From positions 108 to 64,107 of the forward strand of contig JBOIFE010000116.1 in assembly GCA_050741015.1 (NCBI GenBank): a DNA stretch of 64,000 nucleotides, written 5' to 3'. Origin of the DNA: Burkholderiales bacterium. Lineage in GTDB: Bacteria > Pseudomonadota > Gammaproteobacteria > Burkholderiales > SG8-39. The position numbers and the translations under genes are program-made. Shown piece after piece: positions 30,569-54,970 of this stretch. The notes beneath the pieces were generated by a model. The model did no database searches, was not told where the DNA came from, and saw only the letters and a list, made by a program, of their open reading frames with translations. Every line of letters begins with the position of its first letter. Within the stretch, counting starts at the first letter, position 1.

Positions 30569-30577
30569 CGCAAACGA

Positions 30578-31702: not shown

Positions 31703-31704
31703 CG

Positions 31705-32787
<1,083 letters not shown>

Positions 32788-32850
32788 TGAGGGGACTTCG
32801 CCCGCCGCTTAGAATCCATCGGTGCACGCGCCCAACGCCGACCTCCCCGC

Positions 32851-33798: not shown

Positions 33799-33812
33799 GC
33801 AATCGCTACGTC

Positions 33813-34799: not shown

Positions 34800-35809
34800 C
34801 GGGTGCCCAAAGCCGCGCCCGCCCGGACGATCAGCATGCCGAGCCGGTTCTTGAGCGGCAACGAGCGCGTCAACGGAGATGTGTAGAACGCGCTCAGGAT
34901 TCCGCTCTGGGCCGATCGCGCTGAACAATAGCGCCACCACAGGATGGCGATCGCGCGCCGAAACGCCGACGGAGGAAAGCCCGCGGACGTCGCCTCGTTC
35001 CTGCGGATGAGGTTGCCCAGCCAGGCTTCGACGTAACCGACCTCCGGCGCCTCCGCCTTGCGATTGCGGACGATCGCCGCGTGGGCCTCGCACTCAGACT
35101 CCGTCGCGTCCGGATGGATTCTGCGCAGCTGACGCAGGACAATCTTCTTCACGCTCTCTGCCTGAACCCTCTCATGCCGGGCGCTAACTTGACCACCGTG
35201 CTGTCGATATAGCAGCAGGACTTCCGGCACGTTCGCAAGCTTCGTAACCTGGGCGACTCGCGTCCACAGCTCGAAATCCTCGGCATGCGGGAACTCGGCG
35301 TCGTAGCGTAGCCCGTGATTCGCGAAGAACGTCCGGCGGAACATCACCGAGGGATGCGCGAGCGGAGACTCGTAGAAGAGCTTTGCTGCGAGATCTTCCG
35401 GGCGGACCAGCGACCGCACCACCCCGGCTGCCGCGCCATCGAGCATTCGGAACCACGTGCCGCACAGTCCGATTCGCGGCGAGCCCACAAGTAGTTCTCG
35501 TTGCCTCTCCAGGCGCCTCGGCAACGCGGTGTCATCCGCGTCCATGCGCGCGACATACTCGCCCCTTGCCTCCTCCAGCCCCCTGTTGAGCGAGGCGATC
35601 AAGCCGAGATTTCGATCATTTCGCAGTACCCGCAATCGCGGATCCGGGCAGGCGCGAAGCATCTCGGGGCTCGCATCGGTCGACCCGTCATCGACAACGA
35701 GGAGCTCGAAGTCCTCGAAGCTCTGGGCGCGGATGCTCGCTATTGCCTCACCGAGATGTTCTGCGCCGTTGTAGACGGGCATCAGGACGCTAACCGCGGG
35801 AGCCTTCAT
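34796..35809 (-). CDS. glycosyltransferase family 2
   Basis: VSVLMPVYNGAEHL, LVVDDGSTDAS, ARMDADD and EDFELWTR. Paralogue of 38772..39782. Confidence 0.8.
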   Translation of the reverse strand: MKAPAVSVLMPVYNGAEHLGEAIASIRAQSFEDFELLVVDDGSTDASPEMLRACPDPRLRVLRNDRNLGLIASLNRGLEEARGEYVARMDADDTALPRRLERQRELLVGSPRIGLCGTWFRMLDGAAAGVVRSLVRPEDLAAKLFYESPLAHPSVMFRRTFFANHGLRYDAEFPHAEDFELWTRVAQVTKLANVPEVLLLYRQHGGQVSARHERVQAESVKKIVLRQLRRIHPDATESECEAHAAIVRNRKAEAPEVGYVEAWLGNLIRRNEATSAGFPPSAFRRAIAILWWRYCSARSAQSGILSAFYTSPLTRSLPLKNRLGMLIVRAGAALGTR

Positions 35810-35830
35810 GGCCTGATTGCCGCCGGTACG

Positions 35831-36547
35831 TCAGGACGCTCGAGGGTAGAGAAGCGTCATCCCCGGCAGCCCGAGGCCCGAGTCGATCCTCCTGTAGTGG
35901 CCGGGGTTCACCCGCAGGACTTCTTCGATCGCCCGATGCGGGCCCACGTTGTAGCCCGATTCCTTCGGCTGGAAGAACGTGTCGTGCAGCAGGACGCTTG
36001 CGCCCGGAATTTCGGCGGTGACGGCGGAGAGTTCCCTGTGGACCGAGTCGTAGGCGTGGTCGCCGTCGATGAAGAAGACCGGTGCCAGGGCCCGTCCGCT
36101 CGACCTCCAGACAGACAGTGAAACCTCAATGCCATCACCCTGGTGCAGGTGGATCCCAGCCAGCCCGCGCACCAGCCTCCCACGGATGTCCCCGGGATGC
36201 TCGACGTGCTGCGCCTCGTCGGGCAGATCCACGGAATGGATCTGCAGCGGAACGGCATAGTGCTTCGCGCACTCATAGAAAACGCGCGCCGACTTGCCGA
36301 CATGCGTCCCCCATTCGAATATCTGCGTTGGCTTGAGCCGGCATACTGTCGCGCACATGAGCATCAGCTCGTGCAGCGGAAACGGCTCCACGCCCACGAC
36401 TGGGATCAGCCTGGCGAGTACGAAGCGCGACAGCGACCAGTTGTCGACTTCGAACTCCGAGCATCCGGAGTTCTTCGCCGGATTGGTCGTGCTAAGCCGC
36501 GGCTTCCGGCCGGCGAGCCGCAACAGGGCGCTTATCTGCTCCCGCAT
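35831..36547 (-). CDS. class I SAM-dependent methyltransferase (CmcI/Methyltransf_24-like)
   Basis: IFEWGTHVGKSARVF and VFFIDGDHAYDSV. Starting at MREQIS would overlap the upstream GT by 56 nt, so the start is uncertain. Confidence 0.55.
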   Translation of the reverse strand: MREQISALLRLAGRKPRLSTTNPAKNSGCSEFEVDNWSLSRFVLARLIPVVGVEPFPLHELMLMCATVCRLKPTQIFEWGTHVGKSARVFYECAKHYAVPLQIHSVDLPDEAQHVEHPGDIRGRLVRGLAGIHLHQGDGIEVSLSVWRSSGRALAPVFFIDGDHAYDSVHRELSAVTAEIPGASVLLHDTFFQPKESGYNVGPHRAIEEVLRVNPGHYRRIDSGLGLPGMTLLYPRAS

Positions 36548-37814
36548 CCCGAGATTTCTCCGCAATGACGCGCTCGAAGAGCGCTTCGTAATGGTCAGCG
36601 ATTTTCGCCCAAGTGTACCGTTCGAGCCAGCTTGCACGTCCCGCTTTGCCCATGCAGTTCAACCTCTCGGGATCCGAGACAAGCGCCTCGATTTGCGCGG
36701 CAAGCTCGCGGGGCTCGACTCGCGTGTACCCGCGGGCGTCGCGCGGCGCAGGGCAGATCTCTCCTGCTCCCGTCCAGCGCGCGATTTCCTCTGAATTACC
36801 CACGGGCACAGACAGGAACGGCAGTCCTGCGGCCGCAGACTCAAAGAGCACGAGGGGTGAGTACTCGATGTTGGAAGCGAAGACGAAAAGGTCGCTGTTG
36901 AGGTAGGCCTGCACGAGCTCGGAGCGTGAGAGATCGACGAGCAGTGCGCACTTGGCCGATTCCGAGCGGTTGATGCGCGCGACGATGTCCTCCAAGCGCG
37001 GGGCGATCGAGGCGCCGAGGGCCTTGAGAAGGCCCCCAAGGCCGGCGCGTAGAAGGATGGGCTTTAGAAGCCCGACCAGCCTAGCGCGCATTCCGGCGCT
37101 GACCGTTGGATTGTTGCCATTGAGAATCAGCACCGCTTGCCGACCATTCCGCAAGCGCGCAACGTCAAAGGCCTCCGCGAGTTCGCGATGCCCCTTCAGT
37201 CCGGTCAGGCTGCCCACGGTCAGGACAACAAAGGCGTTCGCCGAAATCCCGTGCCTGCGCCTGAAGTCGGGATCACGCGCGATCATGAACTCGCGTTCGC
37301 TCGCACCGTTCGGGACAATGCTAAGGGCTGACAGCCCGTGCTCGCGCGCAAGGTTGATGTCGCGATAGGCAGACGCGTAGAAGATCAGGTGGTCGAACTT
37401 GCGCATCAGATCCGGCATGCGCCGGTAGTAGTCCGAGTATGCGGGCTCATAGAGTCCCGAAAATCCGCACGGGACAAAGATTTTCGGTTTCTTTATCTGA
37501 TCGAGGACGGGGATTAGCGCATCAAACGTCCATTGCTGGGCGGCCTTCACCATGAACACGTCATAGTCGCCCTGGAGCACGAGCCGGCGGTAAGCGTCCG
37601 TTTCGCCACTAATTCCGCGGGCGAGATTTCCCGAGACCGCAAATTCGATGATGTCTACGCCGTCAATTCTTTGGCTAGAACGCTCCGGGAGGCGGGAGGT
37701 CGCCACCGTGACCTGGTGGCTGCGCTCGGCCAACCGCCCCGCGACCTGTCGCACAACTTCCTGCACACCACCCACCGAAGGGGCGTAGAGCTCGCATGCG
37801 AAGAGAACACGCAT
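36492..37814 (-). CDS. glycosyltransferase family 4 (GT-B)
   Basis: MRVLFACELYAPSVGGVQEV and NIEYSPLVLFESAAAGLPFLS (EX7E-like). Confidence 0.75.
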   Translation of the reverse strand: MRVLFACELYAPSVGGVQEVVRQVAGRLAERSHQVTVATSRLPERSSQRIDGVDIIEFAVSGNLARGISGETDAYRRLVLQGDYDVFMVKAAQQWTFDALIPVLDQIKKPKIFVPCGFSGLYEPAYSDYYRRMPDLMRKFDHLIFYASAYRDINLAREHGLSALSIVPNGASEREFMIARDPDFRRRHGISANAFVVLTVGSLTGLKGHRELAEAFDVARLRNGRQAVLILNGNNPTVSAGMRARLVGLLKPILLRAGLGGLLKALGASIAPRLEDIVARINRSESAKCALLVDLSRSELVQAYLNSDLFVFASNIEYSPLVLFESAAAGLPFLSVPVGNSEEIARWTGAGEICPAPRDARGYTRVEPRELAAQIEALVSDPERLNCMGKAGRASWLERYTWAKIADHYEALFERVIAEKSRDAGADKRPVAARRPEAAA

Positions 37815-37817
37815 GGC

Positions 37818-38750
37818 CTATGTCTTGTAGCTCTCCAGCGCTGCTCGCCAGGCACGTTCCAGTCCCGCCTCAAATCCGATTTGCGGTCTCCACCCGGATA
37901 CGCCGCTCAATTTCCCGCTGTCCAGCACGTTTGCCGACACATCGAAGCGGCGCGCCTCCAACCGCTCGGAACGGACCTCGAGGCTGGCGCGCGAGGCGAG
38001 CGGCTCCAGACATCGCAGCACATCCATGTTGCTCCTGCCTACGCCGGTACCAATGTTGTACGCGCTTCCGGAATCGCCCTTCTCGAGCACGGCAATAATC
38101 CCCTTCGCGACATCGGACACGTGCACGTAGTCCCGGATAGTGCCCTCCGTGCCGAACACGCGAACCATCTCGCCGCGAATGATCGAATGCATGGCCGTCG
38201 CGATGAAGCCTTGGCCGGCGAACGGGCGCTGACCTTCTCCAAACGCGTTGCCCGGTCGCGCGATGGCCACGGGCAGGTCGGCGACGTGATGGAACATTCC
38301 TGCGTACTTTTCGATGGTGAGCTTCGTGATGCCGTAGGGCGAGACTGGCATCGTCGGATGGTCCTCGCCAATCGGTAGCGAATGTGCATTGCCGTAAACG
38401 GCTCCGCCTGTGGAGACAAGCACCACTTTGTGCGCCCCCGCCGCCACTGCTTCCTGAAGTAACTGGACGCTCGGCGGGAGGTTCGCAAGGATGTCGTAGA
38501 TCGGATCCGCGAAGCTGGTCTGCGGAACCGTCGCATAGGCAAGATCGACAATCTCATCGACCCCTCGCAGCAGGGTCTTCAGGACGGCCCGATCGCCATA
38601 ATCGCCGCAGACGTAGGTGACCTCTCTGGGCAACGCTACGTCCGGCCGGACCCGGCGACCCAGGATAACGACATCACGCCCCGAATCAGTCAAGTACTGG
38701 GCCAAGCGCGTACCGATGAATCCAGCTCCTCCGATTAAGCAAGTCCGCAT
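37818..38750 (-). CDS. NAD-dependent sugar epimerase/dehydratase (GalE-like SDR)
   Basis: CLIGGAGFIGTRL and the catalytic YGITKLTIE. Confidence 0.75.
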   Translation of the reverse strand: MRTCLIGGAGFIGTRLAQYLTDSGRDVVILGRRVRPDVALPREVTYVCGDYGDRAVLKTLLRGVDEIVDLAYATVPQTSFADPIYDILANLPPSVQLLQEAVAAGAHKVVLVSTGGAVYGNAHSLPIGEDHPTMPVSPYGITKLTIEKYAGMFHHVADLPVAIARPGNAFGEGQRPFAGQGFIATAMHSIIRGEMVRVFGTEGTIRDYVHVSDVAKGIIAVLEKGDSGSAYNIGTGVGRSNMDVLRCLEPLASRASLEVRSERLEARRFDVSANVLDSGKLSGVSGWRPQIGFEAGLERAWRAALESYKT

Positions 38751-38771
38751 GCGATTAGGTTCTTCCCGGAT

Positions 38772-39782
38772 CTAGGACCCTAGCATGAGCCGTCGCGCGC
38801 GCCGGACAATCCTGAAGAGATTGCGGCGCCAACCGTGCCCGTAGATCAACTCCCAATAGCGCGTCCTGAGTCCGGCGACATGCTTTGCAGCTTCCTTTGC
38901 AAAGAACTCGCCGCGGTCACCGGTGACACGCTCAGCGGCGCGCGCGAAAATCGCGCTCATTTCTCCGAAATCCGGCTTGCCGCCAATGCGCTCCGCGGCT
39001 GAATGCTCTAGCGCTGCGATGTTGATGATCTGCGGATTGGACGAGTCGGTGCCTGAGGCCCAAGCGATGTTTTCCGCGCAGATTTTCACGAGGCGACTCA
39101 CGAAGGGCGCTTTCCCGACGCGCGACATGCTGCCCGGGACCTCCCTGTAGATATGCAGGATTTCCGGGATGTTGGCGAGCTGATATCTGCGCGCCACGCG
39201 CGACCACAGCTCGAAATCCTCCGGGGGCTGTCGCTCGACGTCTGTGCTGTAGCCGCCGACGACGCGAAGCGCATCCTTTCGCAGCATTACCGAGCTGTGA
39301 ACAAACGGGTTGTTGAGAAGCAGTCGATACTGCAGAGCTTCGTTGTCTGTAGGATGCCGATGTGACCGACCACTGGGCGTTCGATCGACCCACACATCTG
39401 CCCAGGTCCCCACAAGAGCGCACTGCGGGTTGGCATCGAGGAACGCTGCCTGCCGCCCGAGCCGCGCGGGCTTCGACACGTCATCTTGGTCCTGGCGCGC
39501 GATGTACTTCCCCTTGGCAAGCTCGATGCCGCGATTAAGCGTCGCCGATAAGCCGCGGTTTTCCTGGCTGTAGAACCGCATTCGTGGATCGCTGTATTGC
39601 TGCGCAATCTGCGGCGTACTGTCAGTTGAGCCGTCGTCGATAACGATCAGTTCGAAGTCGCGATAGCCCTGAGCAAGGATGCTGTCGATCGCCTCTCCGA
39701 CATACTCGACGCAATTGAATACCGGGAGAACGACGCTAATGGACGGTTGCACGATCGCATGAGCCCTTAGACTCTGACCCAT
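38772..39782 (-). CDS. glycosyltransferase family 2
   Basis: ISVVLPVFNCVEYV, IVIDDGSTDST, ARQDQDD and EDFELWSR. The start at MGQS overlaps the upstream stop by 16 nt. Confidence 0.8.
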   Translation of the reverse strand: MGQSLRAHAIVQPSISVVLPVFNCVEYVGEAIDSILAQGYRDFELIVIDDGSTDSTPQIAQQYSDPRMRFYSQENRGLSATLNRGIELAKGKYIARQDQDDVSKPARLGRQAAFLDANPQCALVGTWADVWVDRTPSGRSHRHPTDNEALQYRLLLNNPFVHSSVMLRKDALRVVGGYSTDVERQPPEDFELWSRVARRYQLANIPEILHIYREVPGSMSRVGKAPFVSRLVKICAENIAWASGTDSSNPQIINIAALEHSAAERIGGKPDFGEMSAIFARAAERVTGDRGEFFAKEAAKHVAGLRTRYWELIYGHGWRRNLFRIVRRARRLMLGS

Positions 39783-40648
39783 TCGTCCGGGATCAGATCG
39801 ATGGTGCTGTGCGACGCATCTTGAAACCATTTCTGCGGGGCAACTACGACCTTTGTCCGGTTGCTACATAGCCAGGCGCCCCACCAGCTAAACGTGCTAT
39901 TTGCGATGATGTGATGCCGGCATAATGATAGGAGCCGCAAGTCTTCCTCGCCTCTCGTCACGGCATTGTGACGAAGAACGGTAGTCGGAAAGGGAAAACG
40001 CAAATTGGTCTCCGCCCATTCCGGGTCATCGGAGAAGATAAAGATGTGGGGATTCCCAACCCGTTGCCGAACCACGGCTATTGCTCGTTCGTAATACTCC
40101 GGTCCGCACGTGCCATGGTAGCGGCTCGTATGTGCATCGGCGACGTAGTCCCCTCGTCGGACATGCAATGAAACCGAAGTGCAATCCTCTATCATCTCGG
40201 CGAGCTCCAGATTCTTGCCGGCCAAGGGACAGCGGACCTTGAACTCCCCTCGCACTACCTCTTCGATTTCGTTGAAGTATTTTGGACTCTGCCAGTATCC
40301 ATCAAGGTAGATGCCGTCGCCCAATAAGAGAATCTGTGGGTCAAAGTGAAAATGCCTCTCCCGCACGAGCTTCGGCCCGGTCCAGCCAATAGCAGATGCA
40401 CCCTTGCGCAATAGCGTAGCCGTACTGCCCTGACCCAGCAGAAGACTCGCCAAACTGGAATGCCGCCGAAAGCTGACCTCCTTTGGCAGGCGGAAGCGGT
40501 CTAGCCGGAAGCCACCATGTAGTCGATAAGTGCGGAATCCACTGAGATCCAGCTGTAGTGGAACACGAAGTATCGCCGATAGGCGCCTTCCCGCGGCGTA
40601 CTGGAACATCTGATTTCCAAGGCCGCCAAGTACCCGAACAGTAATCAC
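39767..40648 (-). CDS. alpha-1,2-fucosyltransferase (GT11 family)
   Basis: The three GT11 hallmarks are all present: LGGLGNQMFQYAAG, SLHVRRGDY and NSTFSWWGAWL. Confidence 0.85.
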   Translation of the reverse strand: MITVRVLGGLGNQMFQYAAGRRLSAILRVPLQLDLSGFRTYRLHGGFRLDRFRLPKEVSFRRHSSLASLLLGQGSTATLLRKGASAIGWTGPKLVRERHFHFDPQILLLGDGIYLDGYWQSPKYFNEIEEVVRGEFKVRCPLAGKNLELAEMIEDCTSVSLHVRRGDYVADAHTSRYHGTCGPEYYERAIAVVRQRVGNPHIFIFSDDPEWAETNLRFPFPTTVLRHNAVTRGEEDLRLLSLCRHHIIANSTFSWWGAWLCSNRTKVVVAPQKWFQDASHSTIDLIPDEWVRV

Positions 40649-40681
40649 CCGGCGTCTGCTTCGGCAATCCAGCGCATCACG

Positions 40682-41410
40682 CTACGGTTGCCGAGCAACT
40701 CGCCAGTTCTCCCAAATGAATGGGTATTGGTAAGTAAGCGTGTGCGTTAACTGCAGCGCGGCGTGGATCTTCTTCATCCGATTTACCGCGTCCGGTACAA
40801 AATCATGGAACTGTACCTGGATATTATCGATCCTCTTTACGGTGCCTCGAACAATCAGATGCTCCAATAGCTCATACTCCGCGCCCTCAATATTTATCTT
40901 CATTAGATCGACACGTCCAGGAAAGTGTTTATCCAAGAAATCCGCGCCCGCGACTATGTCGATGGATTGAGCTTCACCATTTCGCTCACCTACGAAAGTT
41001 GAAGCGTCACCTGCGATTGTAATTTTCTCATTCCGGTCGCTTCCACCCAGACCAAACGGAAAAACGTGTATCCGATCGTTCGCACGGAATCGTCGCTTGA
41101 TGCTCTCACAGTATGCGTTGACCGGCTCAAAGATATGCACATCACACAAGTGCATTCCGAAAATATCGCTCGCCCACTGCCCTTCAAATCCGCCCACGTC
41201 CAAAACAACGGACTCTCGTCGCAGGTCATAGTCGAGCCTTAGCGTTTTATCACCTCTCACCGCAACCCATTCGCGGTGTGCTTCAACAATCATTTGCTTA
41301 ATGGGGTTAGGTTGCTCCACCGGCTGTGAGCGCCTGATAGAGCTGAGGCCGGGCAGACTTCCGATCCGCCGTCGTATTCGACCAAATAGCGCGCTTGGGT
41401 CAATAGGCAT
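40682..41410 (-). CDS. FkbM-family methyltransferase
   Basis: VLDVGGFEGQW and LMKINIEGAEYELL. Confidence 0.75.
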   Translation of the reverse strand: MPIDPSALFGRIRRRIGSLPGLSSIRRSQPVEQPNPIKQMIVEAHREWVAVRGDKTLRLDYDLRRESVVLDVGGFEGQWASDIFGMHLCDVHIFEPVNAYCESIKRRFRANDRIHVFPFGLGGSDRNEKITIAGDASTFVGERNGEAQSIDIVAGADFLDKHFPGRVDLMKINIEGAEYELLEHLIVRGTVKRIDNIQVQFHDFVPDAVNRMKKIHAALQLTHTLTYQYPFIWENWRVARQP

Positions 41411-41490
41411 GGTGGAGCTGTCGAATGACTACAAGGGGGTCGCTTCTTTCCTCGAGGACGACATCTTTTGGAATCCACCACCTGCGGCGA

Positions 41491-42360
41491 CTAGGTGTTC
41501 TTCCGAAACAACTGCACCGGCATTAGGCGACCTTCGCTGTCGACCCGATCTTGTCGTACTTTGTCCGCGGATCGCGTTCGCCACCATAGATCAACACTGT
41601 CTCTCAACTTGGGGCCACGGAAAGCGGGCACATACACAGGTTGCGCGGTCAAGTAGCAGTTACCGCGGTAGTCGCTTACCAAGTAGGTGAGATGAGCATT
41701 GGGAAACGATGCCTCTAGGTCAAATTCGGGCACCTCGAGTTTGTGAAAGTCGTCCGAGTGAACGAATATGCAGTTCGAGTCCGTCATGCATGCAAGCTTG
41801 TATCCCCTTTCAGCCGCAGCTCGCGTGATCGCCAATCCCGATGAGCCCAAATTACCGCCAGGTGACTGAAATAAGTCCAAGTGAGGCGGTATAGTCGGGT
41901 TGTACTCGACGACCAATACCCTTGGACGGATATTCTTCAGTGAACAGAGGATGTGATAGTCGTCGCCATCAATGTCGATACAAAGCAGATCTAGGTCTCT
42001 TTCCTCGTACCTAGCGCGTTTCACGAGGGAGTCGAGAGAGTCGTTTCCGCTTGGCGCCACAAATGCATTTAATACGGTGACCAAAGAGTTCGTGAGGACC
42101 CTTTGCCGTAACTGGGCACAGCGAGCTGTGTCCCCTTCTATGAGCAGCGCGCTCCACCCTTGGTCGTGCCAAAGTCGATAGGTATTGCTGAGATGCTTTC
42201 CATCCCAGGCTCCAAACTCGATACAGGTCTTTGTGCGCGGGACGATCCGGCGGAAAATTTCCTCGATAATTCCATCCTCGCCAAATTGCGACGTAATGTT
42301 CCTCGCATAGTTCGCGAGGGGTGGGGCACTGCTTCGAGGTTCTATATTCACGGTCATCAT
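41491..42360 (-). CDS. FkbM-like methyltransferase
   Basis: SQFGEDGIIEEIF, CIEFGAWDGKHLSNT, WSALLIEGD, LLCIDIDGDDYHIL and VLVVEYN. Confidence 0.6.
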   Translation of the reverse strand: MMTVNIEPRSSAPPLANYARNITSQFGEDGIIEEIFRRIVPRTKTCIEFGAWDGKHLSNTYRLWHDQGWSALLIEGDTARCAQLRQRVLTNSLVTVLNAFVAPSGNDSLDSLVKRARYEERDLDLLCIDIDGDDYHILCSLKNIRPRVLVVEYNPTIPPHLDLFQSPGGNLGSSGLAITRAAAERGYKLACMTDSNCIFVHSDDFHKLEVPEFDLEASFPNAHLTYLVSDYRGNCYLTAQPVYVPAFRGPKLRDSVDLWWRTRSADKVRQDRVDSEGRLMPVQLFRKNT

Positions 42361-42413
42361 TCAATTTGCTCTTAACTAGGAAATGCTTCAATCAACACTC
42401 AGGAGCCAGCGCG

Positions 42414-43718
42414 TCAACCTACCTCTCGGAAGCCCCGAGACTCGTCCACCCAAGGCAGTACAGGCGCCAACATCGTGGGCCTCTTGTTGATCCAGTACGG
42501 TGAATCGCTGCTTCCGCCTTGCACTTCCATGTAAATTGTCGGGACACGCTGACGCGGCTCGAATAGCCATTCCGAATAGTGCAATCCACCAATCAGTTCC
42601 AGCTGATAGACACCTTCATTCAACAATCGTGGCGGAATTCTGGATCGCACCATATGCGATCCGGGTTCCAGTTTCACCGTTGTGCCATCTCCAGCATCTG
42701 TGTTGTATGACCAGTAAAGGCATGCCCCCTCCTGCGTATATAGCGCATAGCCTATCGTAAGGTTTTCGTTGAATTGCTCCACCTTTCCTTCAATTGTCAC
42801 GTATGCATCTTCGTCGGCTCTCATCGGCATTTGAAGTGGCCTCCCGTTCTCAGATGCAACATAGAAGCGCTTCGGCGAAAAGTATGGATTTTCATACTCC
42901 CCACCGCCATTTTCCCAAATCGAGCTCGCGTGACTAGCATTCATACCTACGTAGCTTCGAATTACCGAATCGACGTCATCCGAGTACAACGCAAGTCTCC
43001 CCTCGGAGATGAGCATCGCGCTCGTGCACAATTGACGGACCGCGCTCATGTTGTGGCTGACAAACAGCACAGTCCGCCCGCTTTGAGCCACTTCCGCCAT
43101 TCGCCCTAAGCACTTCCTCTGGAAAGAAACATCCCCAACCGCCAGCACCTCGTCCACCACAAGAATCTCCGGCTCCAGGTGTGCCGAGACCGCGAATGCT
43201 AGACGGACATACATGCCGCTCGAGTAGCGCTTGACCGGTGTATCTAGGAACCTCTCGATCTCCGCAAAAGACACTATGTCGTCAAACTTGCGTTGGATCT
43301 CGCTTCCACTCATGCCCAGTATCGCGCCATTCAAGAAGATGTTTTCGCGGCCTGTGAGCTCTGGATGAAACCCCGTTCCGACCTCAAGCAGGCTTGAAAC
43401 CCTTCCGCACATAGTTACGCGGCCCGCAGTGGGCGCGGTGATCCGAGAGAGAATCTTAAGAAGCGTGGACTTCCCCGCCCCATTCTTTCCAATGATTCCT
43501 ACGCGCGCTCCCTCTCTCACCTCGAAATTGATATCTTGTAGGGCCCAGAAGGACTCACTGTGTACATTGGATTCGTTCCGACGAAATGGGTTGATCAATC
43601 GCCGGCCAAACCCTCTGGCGGCCGCGCTCAGAGCATCGCGGAGCGTGTTATAGCGATCCGCGTGCTCATGTCGGATCACATAAGACTTTCCTAGCCCTTC
43701 AGCTTTTATCGCTAACAC
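42414..43718 (-). CDS. wzt: O-antigen/teichoic-type ABC exporter ATP-binding protein with C-terminal glycan-binding extension
   Basis: GTG start. Walker A GKNGAGKST, Wzt/TagH-type signature YSSGM, Walker B ILVVDEVLAVGD. About 180 extra C-terminal residues, predicted beta-rich, as in Wzt_C carbohydrate-binding domains. Confidence 0.85.
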   Translation of the reverse strand: MLAIKAEGLGKSYVIRHEHADRYNTLRDALSAAARGFGRRLINPFRRNESNVHSESFWALQDINFEVREGARVGIIGKNGAGKSTLLKILSRITAPTAGRVTMCGRVSSLLEVGTGFHPELTGRENIFLNGAILGMSGSEIQRKFDDIVSFAEIERFLDTPVKRYSSGMYVRLAFAVSAHLEPEILVVDEVLAVGDVSFQRKCLGRMAEVAQSGRTVLFVSHNMSAVRQLCTSAMLISEGRLALYSDDVDSVIRSYVGMNASHASSIWENGGGEYENPYFSPKRFYVASENGRPLQMPMRADEDAYVTIEGKVEQFNENLTIGYALYTQEGACLYWSYNTDAGDGTTVKLEPGSHMVRSRIPPRLLNEGVYQLELIGGLHYSEWLFEPRQRVPTIYMEVQGGSSDSPYWINKRPTMLAPVLPWVDESRGFREVG

Positions 43719-43727
43719 CGTGTCCTA

Positions 43728-44555
43728 CTAAATTACGTCGGCAAAGGTACGTTCGACGCGCCGAAAATATGCCATACCACTAATCAGTAGTAACGCGACC
43801 AGCACCATCGATAGAACGAAGCCTGGCCAGTAGAGTTGTGTACGCCCCGCTAAGAGAGACCAGCGGAAGCCGTCGATTACCCCGACCATGGGATTCAACG
43901 AGTAAACAAGTCGCCATCTTTCGGGGACTACCGAACTGCTGAAGCCTACGGGGGAGATAAACAGGCCCAACTGCAATATGAACGGAATGAGGTACCTGAA
44001 ATCGCGATACTTGACGTTTAACGCCGCCATCCACAATCCCGTGCCAAGGGCCGCGCTGGCGCCCGCAATGACGAACAACGGTAGTGCGAGCGCGCGCCAG
44101 TCTGGGAGCAGTTGATACCAGACCATCAATCCCATGAGGATTAGCAACGAAACGAGGAAGTCGGCAAACGCAACGACCACTGTGCTTGCAGGTATCAGCA
44201 GACGAGGAAAATACGTCTTTGAGATTAGGCTTGCGTTCCCGATCAAACTATTCGCGACCTCCGAGAATGCGCTTGAGAAAAATTGCCAAGGTAGCATGGC
44301 AGCGGACACGAGAATTGGATACGGGACGCCGTCTGAGGGAAGGCCGGCCAGACGACCAAAGACAACGGTAAAGACTACGATGGTCAGAAGCGGCTTTATG
44401 AGCGCCCACAACACCCCGATCGCGGTCTGCTTGTAGCGAACCAATATGTCGCGCCACGCAAGGAAATAGAACAACTGCCGGTACCGCCAAAGGTCGCGCC
44501 AATAGTGGCGTTCGGCTCGGCCAGCCTCGATGACTAATGTCGGCTTGGTTTCCAT
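43728..44555 (-). CDS. wzm: ABC-2-type polysaccharide exporter permease
   Basis: 275 aa with six hydrophobic segments. N-terminus YWRDLWRYRQLFYFLAWRDILVRYKQTAIGVLWA, typical of Wzm/TagG. Confidence 0.85.
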   Translation of the reverse strand: METKPTLVIEAGRAERHYWRDLWRYRQLFYFLAWRDILVRYKQTAIGVLWALIKPLLTIVVFTVVFGRLAGLPSDGVPYPILVSAAMLPWQFFSSAFSEVANSLIGNASLISKTYFPRLLIPASTVVVAFADFLVSLLILMGLMVWYQLLPDWRALALPLFVIAGASAALGTGLWMAALNVKYRDFRYLIPFILQLGLFISPVGFSSSVVPERWRLVYSLNPMVGVIDGFRWSLLAGRTQLYWPGFVLSMVLVALLLISGMAYFRRVERTFADVI

Positions 44556-44565
44556 GAACGAACAG

Positions 44566-45591
44566 CTACCTCAAAACGCGCGCGTGTACCTTCGACAATT
44601 TCCGCGAGTTCGCTTCCCACCGATAAGCAGTTGAGCAGCTGTCCGCCAGATCAGCATGCGCCGGCCGCCATCCGAGTACATTCCTGATCTTCGCCGATTC
44701 TGAGACCAACTCCACCGAATCCCCCGCCCTCCTCGTCCCCTCCTCGATCCGCAGCCTTATCCCGGCCGCCTTTTCCACCTCCAGCAACACCTCCCGCACG
44801 CTGTACCCACGCCCATACCCGACGTTGAATGTATTCGACGCACCACCATTTTCCAGATAGCGCAGCGCATCCATGTGCGCGCGCGCAAGGTCCTCGACAT
44901 GGATGTAGTCGCGAATGCACGTGCCGTCGGGCGTCGGGTAGTCGGTGCCGAAAATCGTGACCTTCTCCCGCGCGCCGCACGCGGCCTCGCAGGCGATCTT
45001 GATGAGGTGCGTCGCGTTTTCGGTCGCCTGGCCGAGCGTACCGTCGAGGCTCGCGCCCGCCACGTTGAAGTAGCGCAGGATCACGTGCCGCAAGGCGCCC
45101 GCCGCTCCGCTCGCGGCGACGTCTTCGAGCATCCACTCGGTGATGAGCTTCGACTTGCCGTACGGGTTGATCGGGCGCGTCGGCGCAGTCTCGGCGACCG
45201 GAACTTTCTCCGGCGTGCCATACACCGCAGCGGTCGACGAAAAGATGAACCGGGAGATGTTCTTGCACACGCAGACCTCGATCAGGTTGCGCGAGACACC
45301 GGTGTTGTTGCCGTAGTACTTGAGCGGATCGACTACCGACTCCGAGACGACGATGCTGCCTGCGAAGTGGATCACCGCTTCGACTCTGTGCTCGTCAATC
45401 AGCGCGCCGACGAGCGCAGTGTCGCCCGCGTTGCCGACTACCAGCGTCGCCTCGGGCGCCACCGCCCAGCGGTGTCCCGTGGAAAGATCGTCCAGCACGA
45501 CGACGCGGTGGCGCGCGGCAATCAACTGCCGCACCGTATGCGAGCCGATGTAGCCCGCGCCGCCCGTGACCAGGACCGTTCCGCTCGTCAT
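44566..45591 (-). CDS. galE: UDP-glucose 4-epimerase
   Basis: Internal ATG giving MTSGTVLVTGGAGYIGSH. Motifs FSSTAAVYG, YGKSKLITE and RDYIHVEDLA. Confidence 0.85.
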   Translation of the reverse strand: MTSGTVLVTGGAGYIGSHTVRQLIAARHRVVVLDDLSTGHRWAVAPEATLVVGNAGDTALVGALIDEHRVEAVIHFAGSIVVSESVVDPLKYYGNNTGVSRNLIEVCVCKNISRFIFSSTAAVYGTPEKVPVAETAPTRPINPYGKSKLITEWMLEDVAASGAAGALRHVILRYFNVAGASLDGTLGQATENATHLIKIACEAACGAREKVTIFGTDYPTPDGTCIRDYIHVEDLARAHMDALRYLENGGASNTFNVGYGRGYSVREVLLEVEKAAGIRLRIEEGTRRAGDSVELVSESAKIRNVLGWRPAHADLADSCSTAYRWEANSRKLSKVHARVLR

Positions 45592-45625
45592 GAGTCCGTG
45601 ATTGTATGGGAAACTTGCGACGCCG

Positions 45626-46486
45626 ATGGCGACGTTCTCGATCCTCATCCCAAGCTGGAACAACCTGCCTTACCTGCGCCTGTGCGTAGAGAGCCTGCGC
45701 CGGCATTCCGCGCGCGAACACCAGGTTGTCGTGCATGCAAATCCCGGTACGGACGGCACTCGCGAATGGTTGCTCGAAGAACGCATCGACCACACCGCGA
45801 GCGACGTAAACATCGGCATTTGCCACGCGCTCAACATTGCCGCGACCAAAGCGCGCTGCGAGTACCTTATCTACGTAAATGACGACATGGTCTTTGCGCC
45901 AGGATGGGACGTGGCGCTGGATCGTGCAATCGAGCGCGTTGCGCGCAACGAAATGTTTACGCTATCCGCGACCATGATCGAGCCGGTCGCCACCGGCAAT
46001 TCCTGCGTGGTAATCGCGAACTACGGGCGCGACCCGGCGAGCTTCGAGCTCGAGCGCTTTGCGAGCGATGCGCCTAAACTCGCGCGGGCGGATTGGCTCG
46101 GCGCAACCTGGTCGCCAACTCTGGTCGCTCGTTCGCTCTGGCACCAAGTCGGCGGATACAGCATCGAATTCTCGCCCGGCATGAGCAGCGAGAATGACTT
46201 TTCGATGAAGCTATGGAGCGCCGGATGCCGCGTATTTCTCGGCGTCGGCGACAGTCTCGTGTATCACTTCGCGGAAGTCTCGACGCGGCGCATGCGCAAG
46301 AACGACGGCCGGCAACAGTTCCTGCTCAAATGGGGCACTACGCAGTCGGCCTTCAGCAAGTACTATTTGCGTCGCGGCGATGTCGTGCCCTCAGGGGAAC
46401 AAGGGGTTCGCCTCCCGGAGCCTGAGCCCTCGTGGGGATTGCGGTGGCAGGGCGTCAAGGCCCAATTGAAGCGCCGCCTCGGTTGA
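45626..46486 (+). CDS. glycosyltransferase family 2-like
   Basis: FSILIPSWNNLPYLRLCVESL and YVNDDMVF. ATG at 45626 preferred over TTG at 45602. Confidence 0.7.
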   Translation: MATFSILIPSWNNLPYLRLCVESLRRHSAREHQVVVHANPGTDGTREWLLEERIDHTASDVNIGICHALNIAATKARCEYLIYVNDDMVFAPGWDVALDRAIERVARNEMFTLSATMIEPVATGNSCVVIANYGRDPASFELERFASDAPKLARADWLGATWSPTLVARSLWHQVGGYSIEFSPGMSSENDFSMKLWSAGCRVFLGVGDSLVYHFAEVSTRRMRKNDGRQQFLLKWGTTQSAFSKYYLRRGDVVPSGEQGVRLPEPEPSWGLRWQGVKAQLKRRLG

Positions 46487-46499
46487 ACGACTTGCGCGC

Positions 46500-46527
46500 C
46501 GCGACGACCTCCCGGAGGTTGCTCGCG
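46500..46527. terminator. imperfect hairpin between convergent genes (possible bidirectional terminator)
   Basis: CGCGACGACCTCC-C-GGAGGTTGCTCGCG. The stem is imperfect and there is no U-tract. It lies in the 47-nt gap between convergent stops. Confidence 0.25.
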
Positions 46528-46533
46528 ACGGCT

Positions 46534-47400
46534 TCACTCGCCACTGGCGTACTTGGCACGCAAGTAGGCCCCGAGGGCTTCGTTCCAACTACGCATCGTT
46601 ACGCCCAGGGCCCGCGCCTTGGTGTTCCCTAGAATCGAATAGAGCGGCCGGCGCATGCCGCCTGTCCTGCCGCCGCGGTCCACCGGCACGACCTCTGTCT
46701 GCGTGCCGCACAGACGCACGATCTCGCAGGTGAACTCGTACCAGGAACATTCGCCCTCGTTCACCAGGTGGTAGATACCCGGCGGCGCGAATTTCCCCAG
46801 CAGCGCATAGACGGCGCGGCTGAGGTCCTCGGTTGACGTCGGCGACACGACCTGCTCACTCGCCATCTCAATGCGCTTGCCGGCGCGCGCCTCGGTCACA
46901 CGGGCATCGACGAAGTTACCGCCCTTGGATCGCGCCCCGGAGCGCCCGTAGAGGCCGCACGTGCGTATCACCACGGCGTGCGCCGGCGCCGAGGCGAGCG
47001 CCGCGTACTCGCCGGCCAGCCGGCTCAAGCCGTAGACCTGCAAGGGGAACGGCCGGTCGTCCTCGCGCCAGGGCTCGCAGCGCGCGCCGCCGAAGACATA
47101 GTCGCTGCTAAAGGTCACCAGGCGCGCGTCCTGCCCGGCACAGGCCACGGCCAGATCCCGCACCGCCGTACAGTTAACCAGAAACGCCTGGCTCGGCTCG
47201 TCCTCGCATCGGAGCAGGTTGTGGAAAGCGGCGCAGTTGATCACTACATCGGGGCGCGAGGCCGCGACAAGTCGCGCGCCTTCCCCCGCCCGCGCGAGAT
47301 CGAGCTCCGCGCGCGACGGCGCGACGATCTCGTGACCGGGGTTGCTGCGCAGCAGGTCGCCGCCGAGTTGCCCGGTGGCGCCGATCAGCAGGATCTTCAT
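46534..47400 (-). CDS. RmlD-like NDP-4-ketohexose reductase (catalytic motif reads YxxxR)
   Basis: ATGA overlap start. Motif MKILLIGATGQLGGDL. The position equivalent to VYGxSKLAGE reads VYGLSRLAGE, with the Arg encoded by CGG (checked on the DNA). Confidence 0.75.
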   Translation of the reverse strand: MKILLIGATGQLGGDLLRSNPGHEIVAPSRAELDLARAGEGARLVAASRPDVVINCAAFHNLLRCEDEPSQAFLVNCTAVRDLAVACAGQDARLVTFSSDYVFGGARCEPWREDDRPFPLQVYGLSRLAGEYAALASAPAHAVVIRTCGLYGRSGARSKGGNFVDARVTEARAGKRIEMASEQVVSPTSTEDLSRAVYALLGKFAPPGIYHLVNEGECSWYEFTCEIVRLCGTQTEVVPVDRGGRTGGMRRPLYSILGNTKARALGVTMRSWNEALGAYLRAKYASGE

Positions 47401-47924
47401 GGCAGCAGGGCGTAGGAGCGGTCCCGCTCGGACAGCGTGGGCCCAGGCAGGGGCCAGCAGATGGCGAGCTTCGGATCGTCCCAACGCAGCCCGCGCGCGA
47501 GCTCCGGTTGGTAGGGCACCGACATCTGGTAGAGGACCTCGGCGTCGTCGGCGAGCGTCTGGAAACCGTGCGCGAAGCCTTCCGGCACGTACAGCGCGAG
47601 CCGGTTTGCCGCGTTTAGCTCCGCGGCGTGCCAGCGCAGGCGCGTGGCGGATTCCTCGCGCAGATCCACGATCACGTCCCAGATGGCGCCGCGCGTGCAA
47701 CGCACGACCTTGGCCTCCTCGTGTGGTGCCGCTTGGTAGTGCAGGCCACGCAAGGTCCCGCGGTTGTGGTTCCAGGAGACGTTGCATTGCGCCACAGCCG
47801 GGTTGAGACCGTGGCGCCTGAACTCCTCGGCGCAGAACGAGCGCGCGAAGAAGCCACGCTCGTCCTCCAGCCGCTCGAGCTCGATGGCAAAGGCGCCGGC
47901 AAGCGGCAGCGGCACGAATTTCAA
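47397..47924 (-). CDS. RmlC-like NDP-4-ketohexose 3,5-epimerase (cupin)
   Basis: TTG start (TTGA overlap). Motifs DERGFFARSF, LRGLHYQ and PEGFAHGF. Confidence 0.8.
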   Translation of the reverse strand: MKFVPLPLAGAFAIELERLEDERGFFARSFCAEEFRRHGLNPAVAQCNVSWNHNRGTLRGLHYQAAPHEEAKVVRCTRGAIWDVIVDLREESATRLRWHAAELNAANRLALYVPEGFAHGFQTLADDAEVLYQMSVPYQPELARGLRWDDPKLAICWPLPGPTLSERDRSYALLP

Positions 47925-49156
47925 TCGAGAACCCTCGTCTCGGGAATCGGCACCACGAATCGGCCGCCCCACGCATGAATCGCGCCCATCTGCGCTACGA
48001 CCTCGTCCTGCAGGTTCCACGGCAGTATCAGCACGTAGTCGGGCTTGTCCCGCAGGATGCGCTCGGGCGCGTGGATCGGAATGTGCACGCCGGGAAGGAA
48101 ACGCCCCTGCTTGTGCGGGCTGCGGTCCACCGTGTACGCAAGCAGATCCGCCCGGACACCACAATAGTTGAGAAGTGTGTTGCCTTTAGCGGGGGCGCCG
48201 TACCCGACGACACGCTTGCCGACTTCTTTTGCGCCAATGAGAAACTTGAGCAGGCTACGCTTTGCCGAGCGCACCTGGTCGGCGAATGCGCGGTACGTGT
48301 CGGCGCGCTCCAGGCCGGCCGCTCTCTCGCGGTTACGCAACTCCACAACCTTGTTCGACACCGGAAGCGCGGCGTTCGCCGCATGCCGCGCATAGATGCG
48401 CAGCGACCCTCCATGCGTCGGTATCTCGTCCACGTCGAACAGGGTCAGGCCGTGCGCCGCGAATACGTGCTCGGCAACGAGGAAAGAGAGATACGAGAAG
48501 TGTTCATGGTAGATGGTGTCGAACTGGCTCTCCTGCATCAGCCTGAGCAGGTGCGGAAACTCCATGGTCGCCACGCCGCCGGGCTTGAGCAGCACGGTCA
48601 TGCCGCGCACGAAGTCGTTCAGGTCCGGCACGTGCGCGAGCACGTTGTTGCCGAGGATCAGGTCCGCCTTGCGCCCGGCGGAGGCGAGGTCGGTCGCGGT
48701 CTTGGTTCCGAAGAACTTCACCAGCGTCGGCACGCCCTTCTTCTCGGCTACTGCCGCGACATTCGCCGCGGGCTCGATGCCGAGAACGGGAATGCCCTGC
48801 TCTACGAAGTACTGCAACAAGTATCCGTCGTTGCTCGCGATCTCGACCACGAAGCTGGCGGACGCCAGGCCCAGTCGCTTCTTCATCGCGTGCGCGTACG
48901 CCCTCGCGTGCGCCAGCCACGTATCCGAATAAGAGGAGAAGTAGGCGTAGTCGCTAAAGATCTGCTCCGGCGTCTCGAACTCTTCAAGCTGCACGAGAAA
49001 ACACTTTTCACAGACCCAGGCATGCAGCGGATAGAAGCGCTCCATGCGATTCAGGTCTTCTACTTTGAGGTAGGAATTCGATGGCGGCGACATGCCCAGG
49101 TCGGCGAATGAGAGCGTGAGAGGGGCCGCGCAGAAGCGGCAGATTCCCCGCTTCAT
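47921..49156 (-). CDS. NDP-hexose C-methyltransferase (TylC3/TcaB9-like)
   Basis: ATGA overlap start. N-terminal zinc ribbon CRFC..(x)..CEKC, SAM fold VVEIASNDGYLLQYF, and C-terminal C-methyltransferase domain VVGYGAPAKGNTLLNYCGV...PDYVLILPWNL. Confidence 0.75.
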   Translation of the reverse strand: MKRGICRFCAAPLTLSFADLGMSPPSNSYLKVEDLNRMERFYPLHAWVCEKCFLVQLEEFETPEQIFSDYAYFSSYSDTWLAHARAYAHAMKKRLGLASASFVVEIASNDGYLLQYFVEQGIPVLGIEPAANVAAVAEKKGVPTLVKFFGTKTATDLASAGRKADLILGNNVLAHVPDLNDFVRGMTVLLKPGGVATMEFPHLLRLMQESQFDTIYHEHFSYLSFLVAEHVFAAHGLTLFDVDEIPTHGGSLRIYARHAANAALPVSNKVVELRNRERAAGLERADTYRAFADQVRSAKRSLLKFLIGAKEVGKRVVGYGAPAKGNTLLNYCGVRADLLAYTVDRSPHKQGRFLPGVHIPIHAPERILRDKPDYVLILPWNLQDEVVAQMGAIHAWGGRFVVPIPETRVLD

Positions 49157-50217: not shown

Positions 50218-50984
50218 TACCACTTCTTCCACGGCGGATTGCCGCCCGCCCAGAGCTCCTCGAGATAATTCTTGTCGCGCAGAGTGTCCATCGGCTGCCA
50301 GAAGCCGCGATGAGAGTAAGCGGCCAGCTGGCGCTCGCGCGCTAGCCGCTCGAGTGGGTCGCGCTCCCACACAGTGGCGTCGCCCGCGATGAGCTCGACA
50401 ACCGAGGGCGAGCACACGAAAAAACCCCCGTTAATCCAGCCGCCGTCGCCCTTGGGCTTTTCCTGGAAGCTGGTCACGCGCGCGCCGTCCATGACCAGCG
50501 AGCCGAAGCGCCCGGGCGGCTGCACCGCGGTAAGCGTCGCCTTCACCTTCTGCGCCCGGTGGAAGGCGATCAGCGCTTTCAAGTCGACGTCGGCGACGCC
50601 GTCGCCGTAGGTGAAGCAGAAGTCCTCTTTGCCCAGGTGCGGCGCCACCCGCCTGAGGCGCCCCCCGGTCTGTGTGGCCTCGCCCGTGTCCACCAGCGTC
50701 ACCTTCCAGGGCTCGGCGCTCTTCTGGTGCACCTGCATCGAGTTGTCGCGCATGTCGAACGTGACGTCCGACATGTGCAGGAAGTAGTTGGCGAAGTACT
50801 CCTTGATGACGTAGCCCTTATATCCAAGGCACACGATGAACTCGTCCACGCCCTGCGCGGAATAGATCTTCATGATGTGCCAGATGATCGGCTTGCCGCC
50901 AATCTCGATCATCGGCTTGGGCTTCACGGCGGACTCCTCGCTAATCCGCGTACCCATGCCGCCGGCGAGAATTACCGCTTTCAC
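50217..50984 (-). CDS. rfbF: glucose-1-phosphate cytidylyltransferase
   Basis: GTG start giving [18 protein letters not shown]. Motifs [17 protein letters not shown] and [12 protein letters not shown]. Confidence 0.85.
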
Positions 50985-50991
50985 GCTCTCA

Positions 50992-52065: not shown

Positions 52066-52098
52066 CGGCTTACCCGATGCAGCCGAAGCGCTCCCGGG

Positions 52099-52543: not shown

Positions 52544-52607
52544 GTGCTCCTCCCGGCAATTGCGCCATTGTCGCATGAGCGCGCCGCGCGCGGCGATTTC
52601 CGGTCAA

Positions 52608-54961: not shown

Positions 54962-54970
54962 CAAACCGGC

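Follow-up and report, generated by a model that had tools for sequence, protein, structure and literature searches.

How did a block of about 54% guanine-plus-cytosine (GC) come to lie in the lipopolysaccharide (LPS) locus of a bacterium whose DNA is otherwise close to 69% GC, and how many of the surrounding genes came with it? The block occupies positions 39,767–44,565 of a 64,000-nucleotide stretch (hereafter the window, numbered from its first letter) of contig JBOIFE010000116.1, from a Burkholderiales metagenome-assembled genome (MAG; GCA_050741015.1). It carries five genes: wzm and wzt, for an ATP-binding cassette (ABC) exporter of O-polysaccharide, two methyltransferase genes, and a gene for a glycosyltransferase of family 11 (GT11; other families are abbreviated likewise). 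A first-pass annotation had taken these five genes for a unit acquired from a much lower-GC donor and spliced between resident high-GC genes, with galE on one side and GT2/GT4 genes on the other. We conclude that the block is very probably the export-and-termination end of a swapped O-antigen cassette of eleven genes and ∼10.7 kb (33,813–44,555), lying in a hypervariable LPS slot.

Positions 39,767–44,565 have a GC content of 53.6% (range in 500-nt windows, 49–57%) as compared with 67.8% for the remainder of the window and 69.0% for the window minus the whole LPS region. The block lies 11.7 standard deviations (sd) below the other 4.8-kb windows of the contig (z = −11.7), and the lowest-GC 4.8-kb window of the contig starts at 39,501. 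Segmentation by likelihood ratio, to which no coordinates had been supplied, returned five segments (Table 1); because it recovered them unaided, both the low-GC block and its shoulders of intermediate GC are real. The contrast of roughly 50 versus 70% initially claimed was thus essentially right, if slightly exaggerated (53.6 versus 68–69%), and the intermediate shoulder claimed with it at 33.8–39.7 kb corresponds to segment 2. GC at third codon positions (GC3) is 0.54–0.66 in the five block genes, 0.70–0.80 in the six genes of the left shoulder, 0.83 in galE and 0.83–0.95 in typical genes, and GC1 and GC2 are reduced in the block as well. The same five genes are the codon-usage extremes of the window (codon-bias distance +3.4 to +5 sd, codon adaptation index about −3 sd, relative to other genes); the reference set of "core genes" for these statistics held some wrong-frame open reading frames (ORFs), which inflated the sd, and the block genes are outliers regardless. 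A discontinuity is therefore present in the GC, GC3 and codon-adaptation profiles alike. The eleven-gene module as a whole has a GC content of 58.5%.

Table 1. Compositional segments of the window and genes of its LPS region. Gene calls for 33,813–38,750 are taken from a Logan contig.
Feature	Positions	Strand	Composition or support
Segment 1	1–32,440		69.0% GC
Segment 2 (left shoulder)	32,441–39,500		63.1% GC
Segment 3 (low-GC block)	39,501–44,640		53.7% GC
Segment 4 (right shoulder)	44,641–46,370		62.8% GC
Segment 5	46,371–64,000		68.3% GC
galE, right flank	44,566–45,591	−	TIGR01179, 429 bits
wzm, ABC-2 permease of O-polysaccharide exporter	43,728–44,555	−	Pfam ABC2_membrane PF01061, E = 1.7e-18
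wzt, ATPase with C-terminal carbohydrate-binding domain (predicted)	42,414–43,718	−	Pfam ABC_tran PF00005, E = 3e-21
Divergent FkbM-like methyltransferase, 289 aa	41,491–42,360	−	Sub-threshold Pfam score plus family membership
FkbM-family methyltransferase	40,682–41,410	−	Methyltransf_21, E = 9e-10; TIGR01444, 50.8 bits, above cut-off
GT11-family glycosyltransferase (alpha-1,2-fucosyltransferase family)	39,767–40,648	−	Glyco_transf_11 PF01531, E = 5e-32
GT2, first gene of the 63% shoulder	38,772–39,782	−	Pfam GT2; in-frame ATG at 39,782
Short-chain dehydrogenase/reductase (SDR) epimerase/dehydratase	37,818–38,750	−	Pfam
GT4	36,492–37,814	−	Pfam
CmcI-like methyltransferase	35,831–36,547	−	Pfam
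GT2	34,796–35,809	−	Pfam
GT2	33,813–34,799	−	Pfam
Opposite-strand GT2, left flank	32,851–33,798	+	74% amino acid identity to closest relative (rel1)
GT4	31,705–32,787	−	Pfam; resident LPS gene
GT4	30,578–31,753	−	Pfam; resident LPS gene
Polyprenyl-phosphate glycosyl-phosphotransferase (PGT)	29,189–30,568	−	Pfam; resident LPS gene
O-antigen ligase-family protein (WaaL)	27,987–29,345	−	Pfam; resident LPS gene
MsbA	26,191–27,963	−	Pfam; resident LPS gene
gmd	about 21,835–22,914	−	TIGR01472, 587 bits, above cut-off
fcl	20,859–21,833	−	NF047922, 462 bits, E = 1e-138, under 500-bit cut-off; GC3 0.87

The size of the exchanged unit is seen by comparison with related genomes. In the closest relative (rel1; ENA ERZ25039558 contig_34378, loci L083 and L086), the galE side holds, in the same order as in the window, a TonB receptor, a GT9, an opposite-strand GT2 (80% amino acid identity) and galE (82%), and the far side, again in the same order, the opposite-strand GT2 (74%), two GT4 genes (85% each), the PGT gene (88%), the ligase gene (78%) and msbA (87–92%). 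Between galE and the opposite-strand GT2, rel1 has only distant wzm (48%) and wzt (41%) genes, followed by a PhyH protein, CDP-sugar genes and unrelated glycosyltransferases, and no orthologue of any of the nine other cassette genes was found there. GalE is 78–82% identical in five relatives, each with a variable region downstream of it (directly so in all but locus L010). In L084 galE is followed by wzm (65%), wzt (65% in the nucleotide-binding domain, NBD) and then different genes; in L090 by wzm (72%), wzt (52%) and then different genes; and in L010 by a 632-aa ORF, wzm (72%), wzt (48%) and then different genes. A Steroidobacteraceae MAG (locus L089; GCA_040902065.1, 1–11,091) has a cluster of the Wzx/Wzy type in the same slot (galE-Wzz-Wzy_C-Wzx-MT-GT2-MT-GT11-GT2-PGT, where MT is a methyltransferase). 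Five different gene sets, one of them of the Wzx/Wzy type, are thus found downstream of galE across the five relatives, and GC falls directly after galE in rel1, L089 and L090, with no resolved drop in L010. Judged by its gene order in these sequences, the locus is a hypervariable O-antigen slot with conserved flanks, and these alternative cassettes at the same site after galE support the earlier description of a mosaic, serotype-determining cassette.

The L089 cluster has a GC content of 50–58%, and its GalE and PGT are 73–79% identical to those of the 'Burkholderiales' MAG, which hints that these MAGs are only loosely labeled as to taxonomy. In L084 (GCA_035251315.1, 3,376–4,880) only two genes after wzt are low in GC, one for an FkbM protein and one for a 227-aa protein (GC3 0.59–0.61), and they are followed by a GT10-family gene of host-like GC, so that the mosaic there is as fine as one or two genes.

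Nucleotide identity to rel1 is 92–95% at 32,781–33,080, decays at ∼33.1–33.4 kb within the opposite-strand GT2 and is 55–70% beyond ∼33,400, and at the other end it drops from ∼80% to ∼60% over the final ∼250 nt of galE. Window and rel1 differ from about 33.1/33.8 to 44.6/44.8 kb. A Logan contig of 14.6 kb from SRR34572451 (locus L081) has the counterparts of exactly these genes. It is collinear with the window for all eleven, from wzm (80%) and wzt (74%) through the methyltransferase-like (64%), FkbM (62%) and GT11 (56%) genes to GT2 (56%), epimerase (61%), GT4 (55%), methyltransferase (60%), GT2 (46%) and GT2 (41%), with rmlC-rmlD in place of galE upstream of wzm. Two further loci, L082 and L088 (both 52% GC), have the opening genes of this block, L082 running on past GT11 into the same GT2 (a fragment, 74% amino acid identity). 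Because the genes syntenic in L081 coincide exactly with the stretch in which the window and rel1 differ, we conclude that the exchanged unit is ∼10.7 kb and eleven genes, not 4.8 kb. Segmentation of L081 gave 62.0%, 54.3% and 61.0% GC, the middle segment running from wzm through the GT2 after GT11 and thus being one gene longer than in the window, and each of the five block genes is within 2 GC points of its window value. As L081 has a similar step, the step at 39.5–39.8 kb appears to be a property of the cassette, older than the split between the two copies and than arrival in this genome. Since the whole block is syntenic in L081, no insertion boundary lies at the left edge (39,767), and the neighboring GT2 and GT4 genes are not resident. 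The left boundary and five-gene size first assigned to the island must therefore be given up, as its six left-hand neighbors are absent from rel1 and syntenic in L081; of the neighbors that had been called resident, galE is so (78–82% in relatives), and the GT2/GT4 genes are part of the imported module. In a tblastn search with all cluster proteins against 80 Wzt-bearing loci, the module was not conserved beyond L081 and L082; two MAGs, one of Chryseobacterium (L040) and one of Geobacter (L091), had partial cassette gene sets.

An independent Logan assembly (locus L087; run SRR27067715, 13.8 kb) is 100% identical to window positions 31,491–44,950 and reproduces all the junctions, which are thus not the product of one assembler. 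They are tight: wzm starts 10 nt past the galE stop, the GT2 that follows GT11 shares 16 nt with the end of GT11 or else starts within 14 nt of it, and at the block edges spacers are 6–16 nt or the genes overlap. No tRNA gene was found in the 64-kb window and no integrase or insertion sequence (IS) gene among the ORFs of 29–52 kb, all of which are sugar, LPS or transport genes, and flanking repeats, direct or inverted, did not exceed chance level; the lack of such elements reported in the first-pass annotation is borne out by the ORF families and by the tRNA and repeat searches. The features of a classical integrative genomic island (integrase or transposase, tRNA target, direct repeats) are accordingly missing here. 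Searches of a plasmid collection gave no full-length match, the matches covering 11–24% and falling on conserved parts of wzm/wzt, and a phage collection gave none, so that neither collection holds evidence of carriage on a mobile replicon. The ops/JUMPStart core GGCGGTAG has a single chance-level match far from the operon, and a promoter and terminator scan found nothing above shuffled expectation and nothing at the edges. We favor recombination over a mobile element because of the tight junctions, the lack of tRNA, repeats and integrase, the decay of identity within the flanking genes and the lack of a full-length plasmid or phage match.

The slot is bounded by galE on one side and, on the other, by the opposite-strand GT2 and then the GT4-GT4-PGT-WaaL-MsbA genes. 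The cassette would have been introduced or exchanged by homologous recombination without a mobile element, with one cross-over at or close to the 3′ end of galE and the other within the GT2 of the left flank, and it would have been two-tiered before arrival, with wzm-wzt-MT-MT-GT11 at ∼54% GC and the other glycosyltransferase and epimerase genes at ∼61–63%. In the left-flank GT2, GC3 is 0.82–0.84 over the first 135 codons and 0.64–0.69 afterwards. The drop in identity inside galE does not mark a breakpoint specific to this genome, as the same drop occurs in every pair of relatives. In the 3′ end of galE (44,566–44,820, compared with L083, L084 and L090), the last ∼85 codons are 33–78% conserved as compared with 78–94% elsewhere in every pair, and the GC3 of galE falls in the last 41 codons; this end may be a shared recombination-scarred zone beside the variable region.

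Taxonomic affinities, which we read from best-hit lists, differ between the cassette and its flanks. The closest homologues of the block proteins (74–80%) are on metagenome contigs of 52–58% GC, those of Wzt being metagenome proteins at 74–77%, and homologues with names attached are at most 59% identical and come from Geobacter, Sulfurimonadaceae, Desulfuromonadaceae and Hyphomicrobium. In species-representative genomes, Wzt homologues reach at most 54% full-length identity and are spread over many phyla. GalE homologues at 78–85% identity are common and PGT homologues reach 88%, and the named homologues of these two (57–83%) belong to Burkholderiales, Steroidobacteraceae or Betaproteobacteria. 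As to age, fourfold-degenerate sites of conserved residues are saturated between the window and L081 or L082 (identity 0.27–0.41 versus 0.25–0.28 expected), and those of galE and the C-methyltransferase gene are not so when compared with rel1 (0.58–0.70 versus 0.38–0.41 expected). GC at these fourfold sites (GC4) is 0.50–0.65 in the block genes of the window, 0.89–0.90 in galE and 0.85 in wzm/wzt of L084. Because GC4 is low despite saturation, and long residence in a high-GC genome would have raised it, the block has mostly resided in lower-GC genomes or keeps moving. Low GC is also not intrinsic to wzm and wzt, since those of L084 have a host-like GC3 (0.87 and 0.78). The alternative gene sets, the differing affinities and the GC3 of L084 all favor the foreign origin that had been proposed for the five genes; what has changed is the transferred unit, which is eleven genes and not five.

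In a Geobacter sp. MAG (L091; GCA_016177775.1, 5,455–10,541) wzm (62%) and wzt (59%) are not adjacent, a PIN-domain gene and two small ORFs lying between them. Its wzt has 46% GC and the next gene 33%, as compared with 58–63% in their neighbors; the cluster is interspersed with members of the 23S-rRNA-intervening-sequence protein family and also holds homologues (44–52%) of the GT4, the CmcI-like methyltransferase and the GT11 of the window cassette.

Several points weigh against an eleven-gene swap or against details of it. All comparators are MAGs or metagenome contigs, and a scan of genome contigs with Wzt returned no close relative, so that no donor is named. The shoulder genes of the window average +0.06 in GC3 over their L081 counterparts while the block genes differ by ∼0, and the GC3 step from block to shoulder is +0.14, about double the +0.07 of L081. 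There is a minority possibility that a related allele afterwards took the place of the five or six low-GC genes alone. The direction of change is unpolarized, and the cassette could be old in this lineage and the relatives the changed ones. The right breakpoint is only bracketed (44.55–44.82 kb), because every pair of relatives shows variation in the C-terminal part of GalE. On the functional side, the second FkbM assignment falls under the curated threshold for the protein itself, the C-terminal 175 residues of Wzt match Wzt_C under the 30.4 threshold (E = 3.4e-4, 21 bits), and cap chemistry and the sugar specificity of the GT11 are read from family membership.

The same doubled GC3 step speaks for the reading that a much lower-GC donor supplied only the five-gene, 4.8-kb block, which entered this genome by insertion or replacement between resident galE and GT2/GT4 genes. 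We regard this as improbable. It would place the boundaries at the sharpest change points (39,500 and 44,640), and it would fit a longer residence of the shoulder, in which GC4 is 0.72–0.87 as compared with 0.64–0.69 in L081 while in the block genes it is equal or lower; patches as small as the two low-GC genes of L084 do occur in such a locus. However, it leaves the six shoulder genes, which have no orthologues in rel1, without an explanation of why they are collinear with the block in L081 and why the GT2 after GT11 is also in L082, and amino acid identity to L081 shows no jump at the GT11/GT2 junction (62 and 56% before it, 56 and 61% after it), where the two genes overlap or abut. L081 moreover has a similar low-GC sub-block of its own.

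That there was no transfer at all, and that a native block has kept its low GC through membrane-protein composition, selection for low expression or a local mutational bias of the kind typical of genes for surface polysaccharides, we consider very improbable. Non-homologous genes at this site between flanks that are ∼80% identical mean that replacement has happened, the wzm/wzt of L084 (65% amino acid identity) have a host-like GC3, the soluble FkbM and GT11 proteins are encoded by genes as AT-rich as that of the membrane protein Wzm, and the contigs that carry the nearest homologues are low in GC and have other flanking genes. These outweigh the facts that most examined relatives are low in GC in the variable part, that GC3 is ∼0.6 in each of two copies of the module that diverged anciently, and that the lowering of GC1 and GC2 has shifted amino acid composition. 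A chimeric join of lower-GC reads into a high-GC contig, during assembly or binning, has to be thought of with any metagenome-assembled source and is here scarcely credible: the independent assembly from SRR27067715 is identical over 13.5 kb spanning both edges, the junctions lie within an operon with spacers of 6–16 nt or overlaps and with reading frames intact, and four further assemblies, made from different samples, also place galE next to wzm (with the 632-aa ORF between them in one).

As to the five genes themselves, wzm (54.5% GC, GC3 0.66) and wzt (53.7% GC) are adjacent with a 9-nt spacer, and the FkbM gene at 40,682–41,410 has the lowest GC of the window (50.9%, GC3 0.54). The GT11 protein matches PF01531 at 111.7 bits (cut-off 23.9) over profile positions 124–295 of 298, and gave no NCBIfam match and no PDB sequence match. 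The product of 41,491–42,360 is more difficult to place, since it scores under the cut-offs of both PF05050 (Methyltransf_21; E = 0.0033, 18 bits, cut-off 22.7) and TIGR01444 (16.4 bits, cut-off 37.7), with Pfam and NCBIfam E-values of 0.003–0.009, and searches of PDB sequences with the protein or its family profile gave nothing usable. Its family counts 5,831 representatives at E ≤ 0.001, and the FkbM model PF05050 is matched by 38 of 50 sampled homologues (best, 2.9e-9); it shares two FkbM motifs, in order, with the neighboring FkbM protein and has orthologues in L081 and L082 at 64–66% amino acid identity. Because 38 of the 50 family members match the FkbM model, "two FkbM methyltransferases" is acceptable with the second taken as divergent; the gene content first assigned to the block thus stands for wzm, wzt, GT11 and one FkbM, and for the other FkbM with the proviso that it is sub-threshold by itself. 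This gene apparently has no public protein accession, the accession numbers of its neighbors (in the series MGH86872xx for the window) being consecutive and its sequence being found only in a Logan assembly; it is probably a missed or pseudogene-flagged call of a divergent FkbM-like methyltransferase, and a conserved methyltransferase-like gene thus appears to escape annotation pipelines.

The best PDB sequence match of Wzt is full-length Aquifex aeolicus Wzt (phmmer, residues 54–373 versus 32–346 of 404), and the alignment, at about 30% identity, extends into the carbohydrate-binding domain. An AlphaFold2 model of Wzt has an all-beta domain at residues ∼267–400 with predicted local distance difference test (pLDDT) scores mostly of 83–94. 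The top Foldseek matches of the model are full-length WzmWzt structures (8dne, 7k2t and 8dku; 398–426 columns, E ∼1e-34), with NBD-only chains about nine orders weaker (E ∼1e-25). At the level of the predicted fold, Wzt thus appears to carry a C-terminal carbohydrate-binding (jelly-roll) domain. Two FkbM-type methyltransferase genes directly follow wzt, and methyltransferase genes are next after wzt also in L081, L082, L084, L091 and L092. In A. aeolicus this domain of Wzt binds 3-O-methyl-mannose/rhamnose caps (PMC9445017). The genes gmd and fcl, at 20.9–22.9 kb, are present for GDP-L-fucose supply.

From the families of its genes, the whole locus, from priming to ligation, might work as follows. 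Resident high-GC genes would supply the sugars (rmlA/B/C for dTDP-rhamnose, gmd/fcl for GDP-fucose, and a C-methyl sugar derived from CDP-glucose), and the resident PGT would prime undecaprenyl phosphate. The GT2, GT4 and GT11 enzymes of the cassette would elongate the chain, whose non-reducing end the methyltransferases beside wzt would modify to form a cap. The C-terminal domain of Wzt would recognize this cap, Wzm/Wzt would export the finished chain, and the resident ligase-family protein, encoded beside MsbA, would join it to lipid A-core. A further, rather doubtful reading is that the five- or six-gene export-plus-cap block (possibly including the next GT2) is an ancient, separately evolving sub-module that circulates between phyla, with its ∼54% GC persisting. 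This GC content would persist in hosts of differing GC, and through saturation of synonymous sites, because the block moves continually as a matched set of cap-making enzymes and cap-reading transporter, and the cap may be a methylated 6-deoxyhexose, such as O-methyl-fucose, outside the biochemically characterized Wzt signals.

The locus is a further instance of the low-GC, recombination-swapped O-antigen loci known from Xanthomonas, Pseudomonas syringae and enterobacteria. In the lps locus of Xanthomonas, between metB and etfA, a wzm/wzt cluster of ∼50.5% GC in a 65% background has altered codon usage (PMC524487; also PMC2238763), and related strains have different gene sets at the same site with breakpoints in the 3′ ends of the flanking genes (PMC524487). 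Our locus resembles it in being a low-GC wzm/wzt cluster in a high-GC proteobacterium, with conserved flanks, alternative cassettes and breakpoints in flanking genes. It is unlike it in its flanks (galE and GT2/GT4/PGT/WaaL/MsbA), in the lack of IS elements, in its host, an uncultured MAG, and in the two-tier internal composition that is common to a foreign copy. The common polysaccharide antigen (CPA) 'TET operon' of P. syringae holds genes for Transport (wzm and wzt with its C-terminal domain), Elongation (a glycosyltransferase) and Termination (an O-methyltransferase), lies among conserved rhamnose and CDP-sugar (rfbG) genes, and has been shuffled through recombination or the horizontal transfer of genes, independently of the core genome (PMC7820976). 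Here, too, transport, elongation and termination genes lie together and are exchanged by recombination; the differences are that two FkbM-type methyltransferases and a GT11 are found rather than WbdA/WbdD-like enzymes, that the exchanged unit adds five glycosyltransferases and an epimerase, and that our system is known from its genes alone. As in cap-dependent WzmWzt (Escherichia coli O9a; A. aeolicus, PMC9445017), Wzt is predicted to have an NBD with a C-terminal beta-sandwich, and methyltransferase genes are adjacent, which by analogy is consistent with a methylated terminal sugar as export signal. Identity to the A. aeolicus protein is only ∼30%, its cap-binding residues 350–362 lie outside the confidently aligned region, and unlike those of known cap systems, the putative cap enzymes here are FkbM-type, possibly with the GT11.

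Enterobacterial O-antigen clusters are generally low in GC. They lie between galF and gnd (e.g. Iguchi et al. 2015; PMC4379981). The present slot is like them in its conserved flanks and variable center and in accepting Wzx/Wzy-type or ABC-type cassettes at one site (L089 versus the window), and it is unlike them in its flanking genes, its high-GC host and the larger contrast (15 GC points). It offers an example of surface-antigen diversification in uncultured high-GC soil or water proteobacteria, in which the resident genes that serve precursor supply, priming, ligation and export of lipid A stay in place and the block of glycosyltransferases, methyltransferases and exporter is swapped via conserved flanking genes. 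It leaves the current understanding of O-antigen genetics unchanged. Because the cassette carried its own GC step, compositional change points in such loci need not be insertion boundaries. The galE gene and the GT2/GT4/PGT block are usable as anchors for O-antigen typing in this clade.

From ∼52 kb down to 26 kb all genes are for LPS synthesis. Their order along the minus strand is a GT9 heptosyltransferase, a CDP-glucose pathway (46.5–51.4 kb), an opposite-strand GT2, galE and the eleven-gene cassette, followed by the other opposite-strand GT2, two GT4 genes, and the PGT, O-antigen-ligase-family and MsbA genes. The resident LPS genes at 26,191–32,787 have a GC3 of 0.76–0.95, and past the MsbA side lie rmlB, rmlA, rmlC, gmd and fcl with host-like GC.

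The CDP-glucose genes upstream of galE (46,534–51,413, minus strand) encode the cytidylyltransferase RfbF, the 4,6-dehydratase RfbG, a TylC3-like C-methyltransferase and an RmlD-like reductase, and suggest a branched (C-methyl) 6-deoxy sugar in the O-antigen. In rel1 the corresponding genes (L083, 6.7–9.7 and 12.0–14.8 kb) are downstream of wzt, inside the variable region; because these genes, 69–86% identical, sit on different sides of galE in the two genomes, the pathway has been translocated. The RmlD match is to residues 193–474 of a 480-aa ORF (46,534–47,976, minus strand) with an unusually high GC2 (0.60), whose N-terminal ∼190 residues resemble (47%) an rmlC-like gene that stands by itself in the relative. 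A 415-aa gene lies there between the rmlC-like and RmlD-like genes, and the ORF is either a gene fusion or over-extended. At the right border of the LPS region (52,608–55,858) lie genes for a Peripla_BP_2-type periplasmic binding protein (plus strand) and a TonB-dependent receptor (minus strand), the latter 84% identical to the one that starts the contig of the relative.

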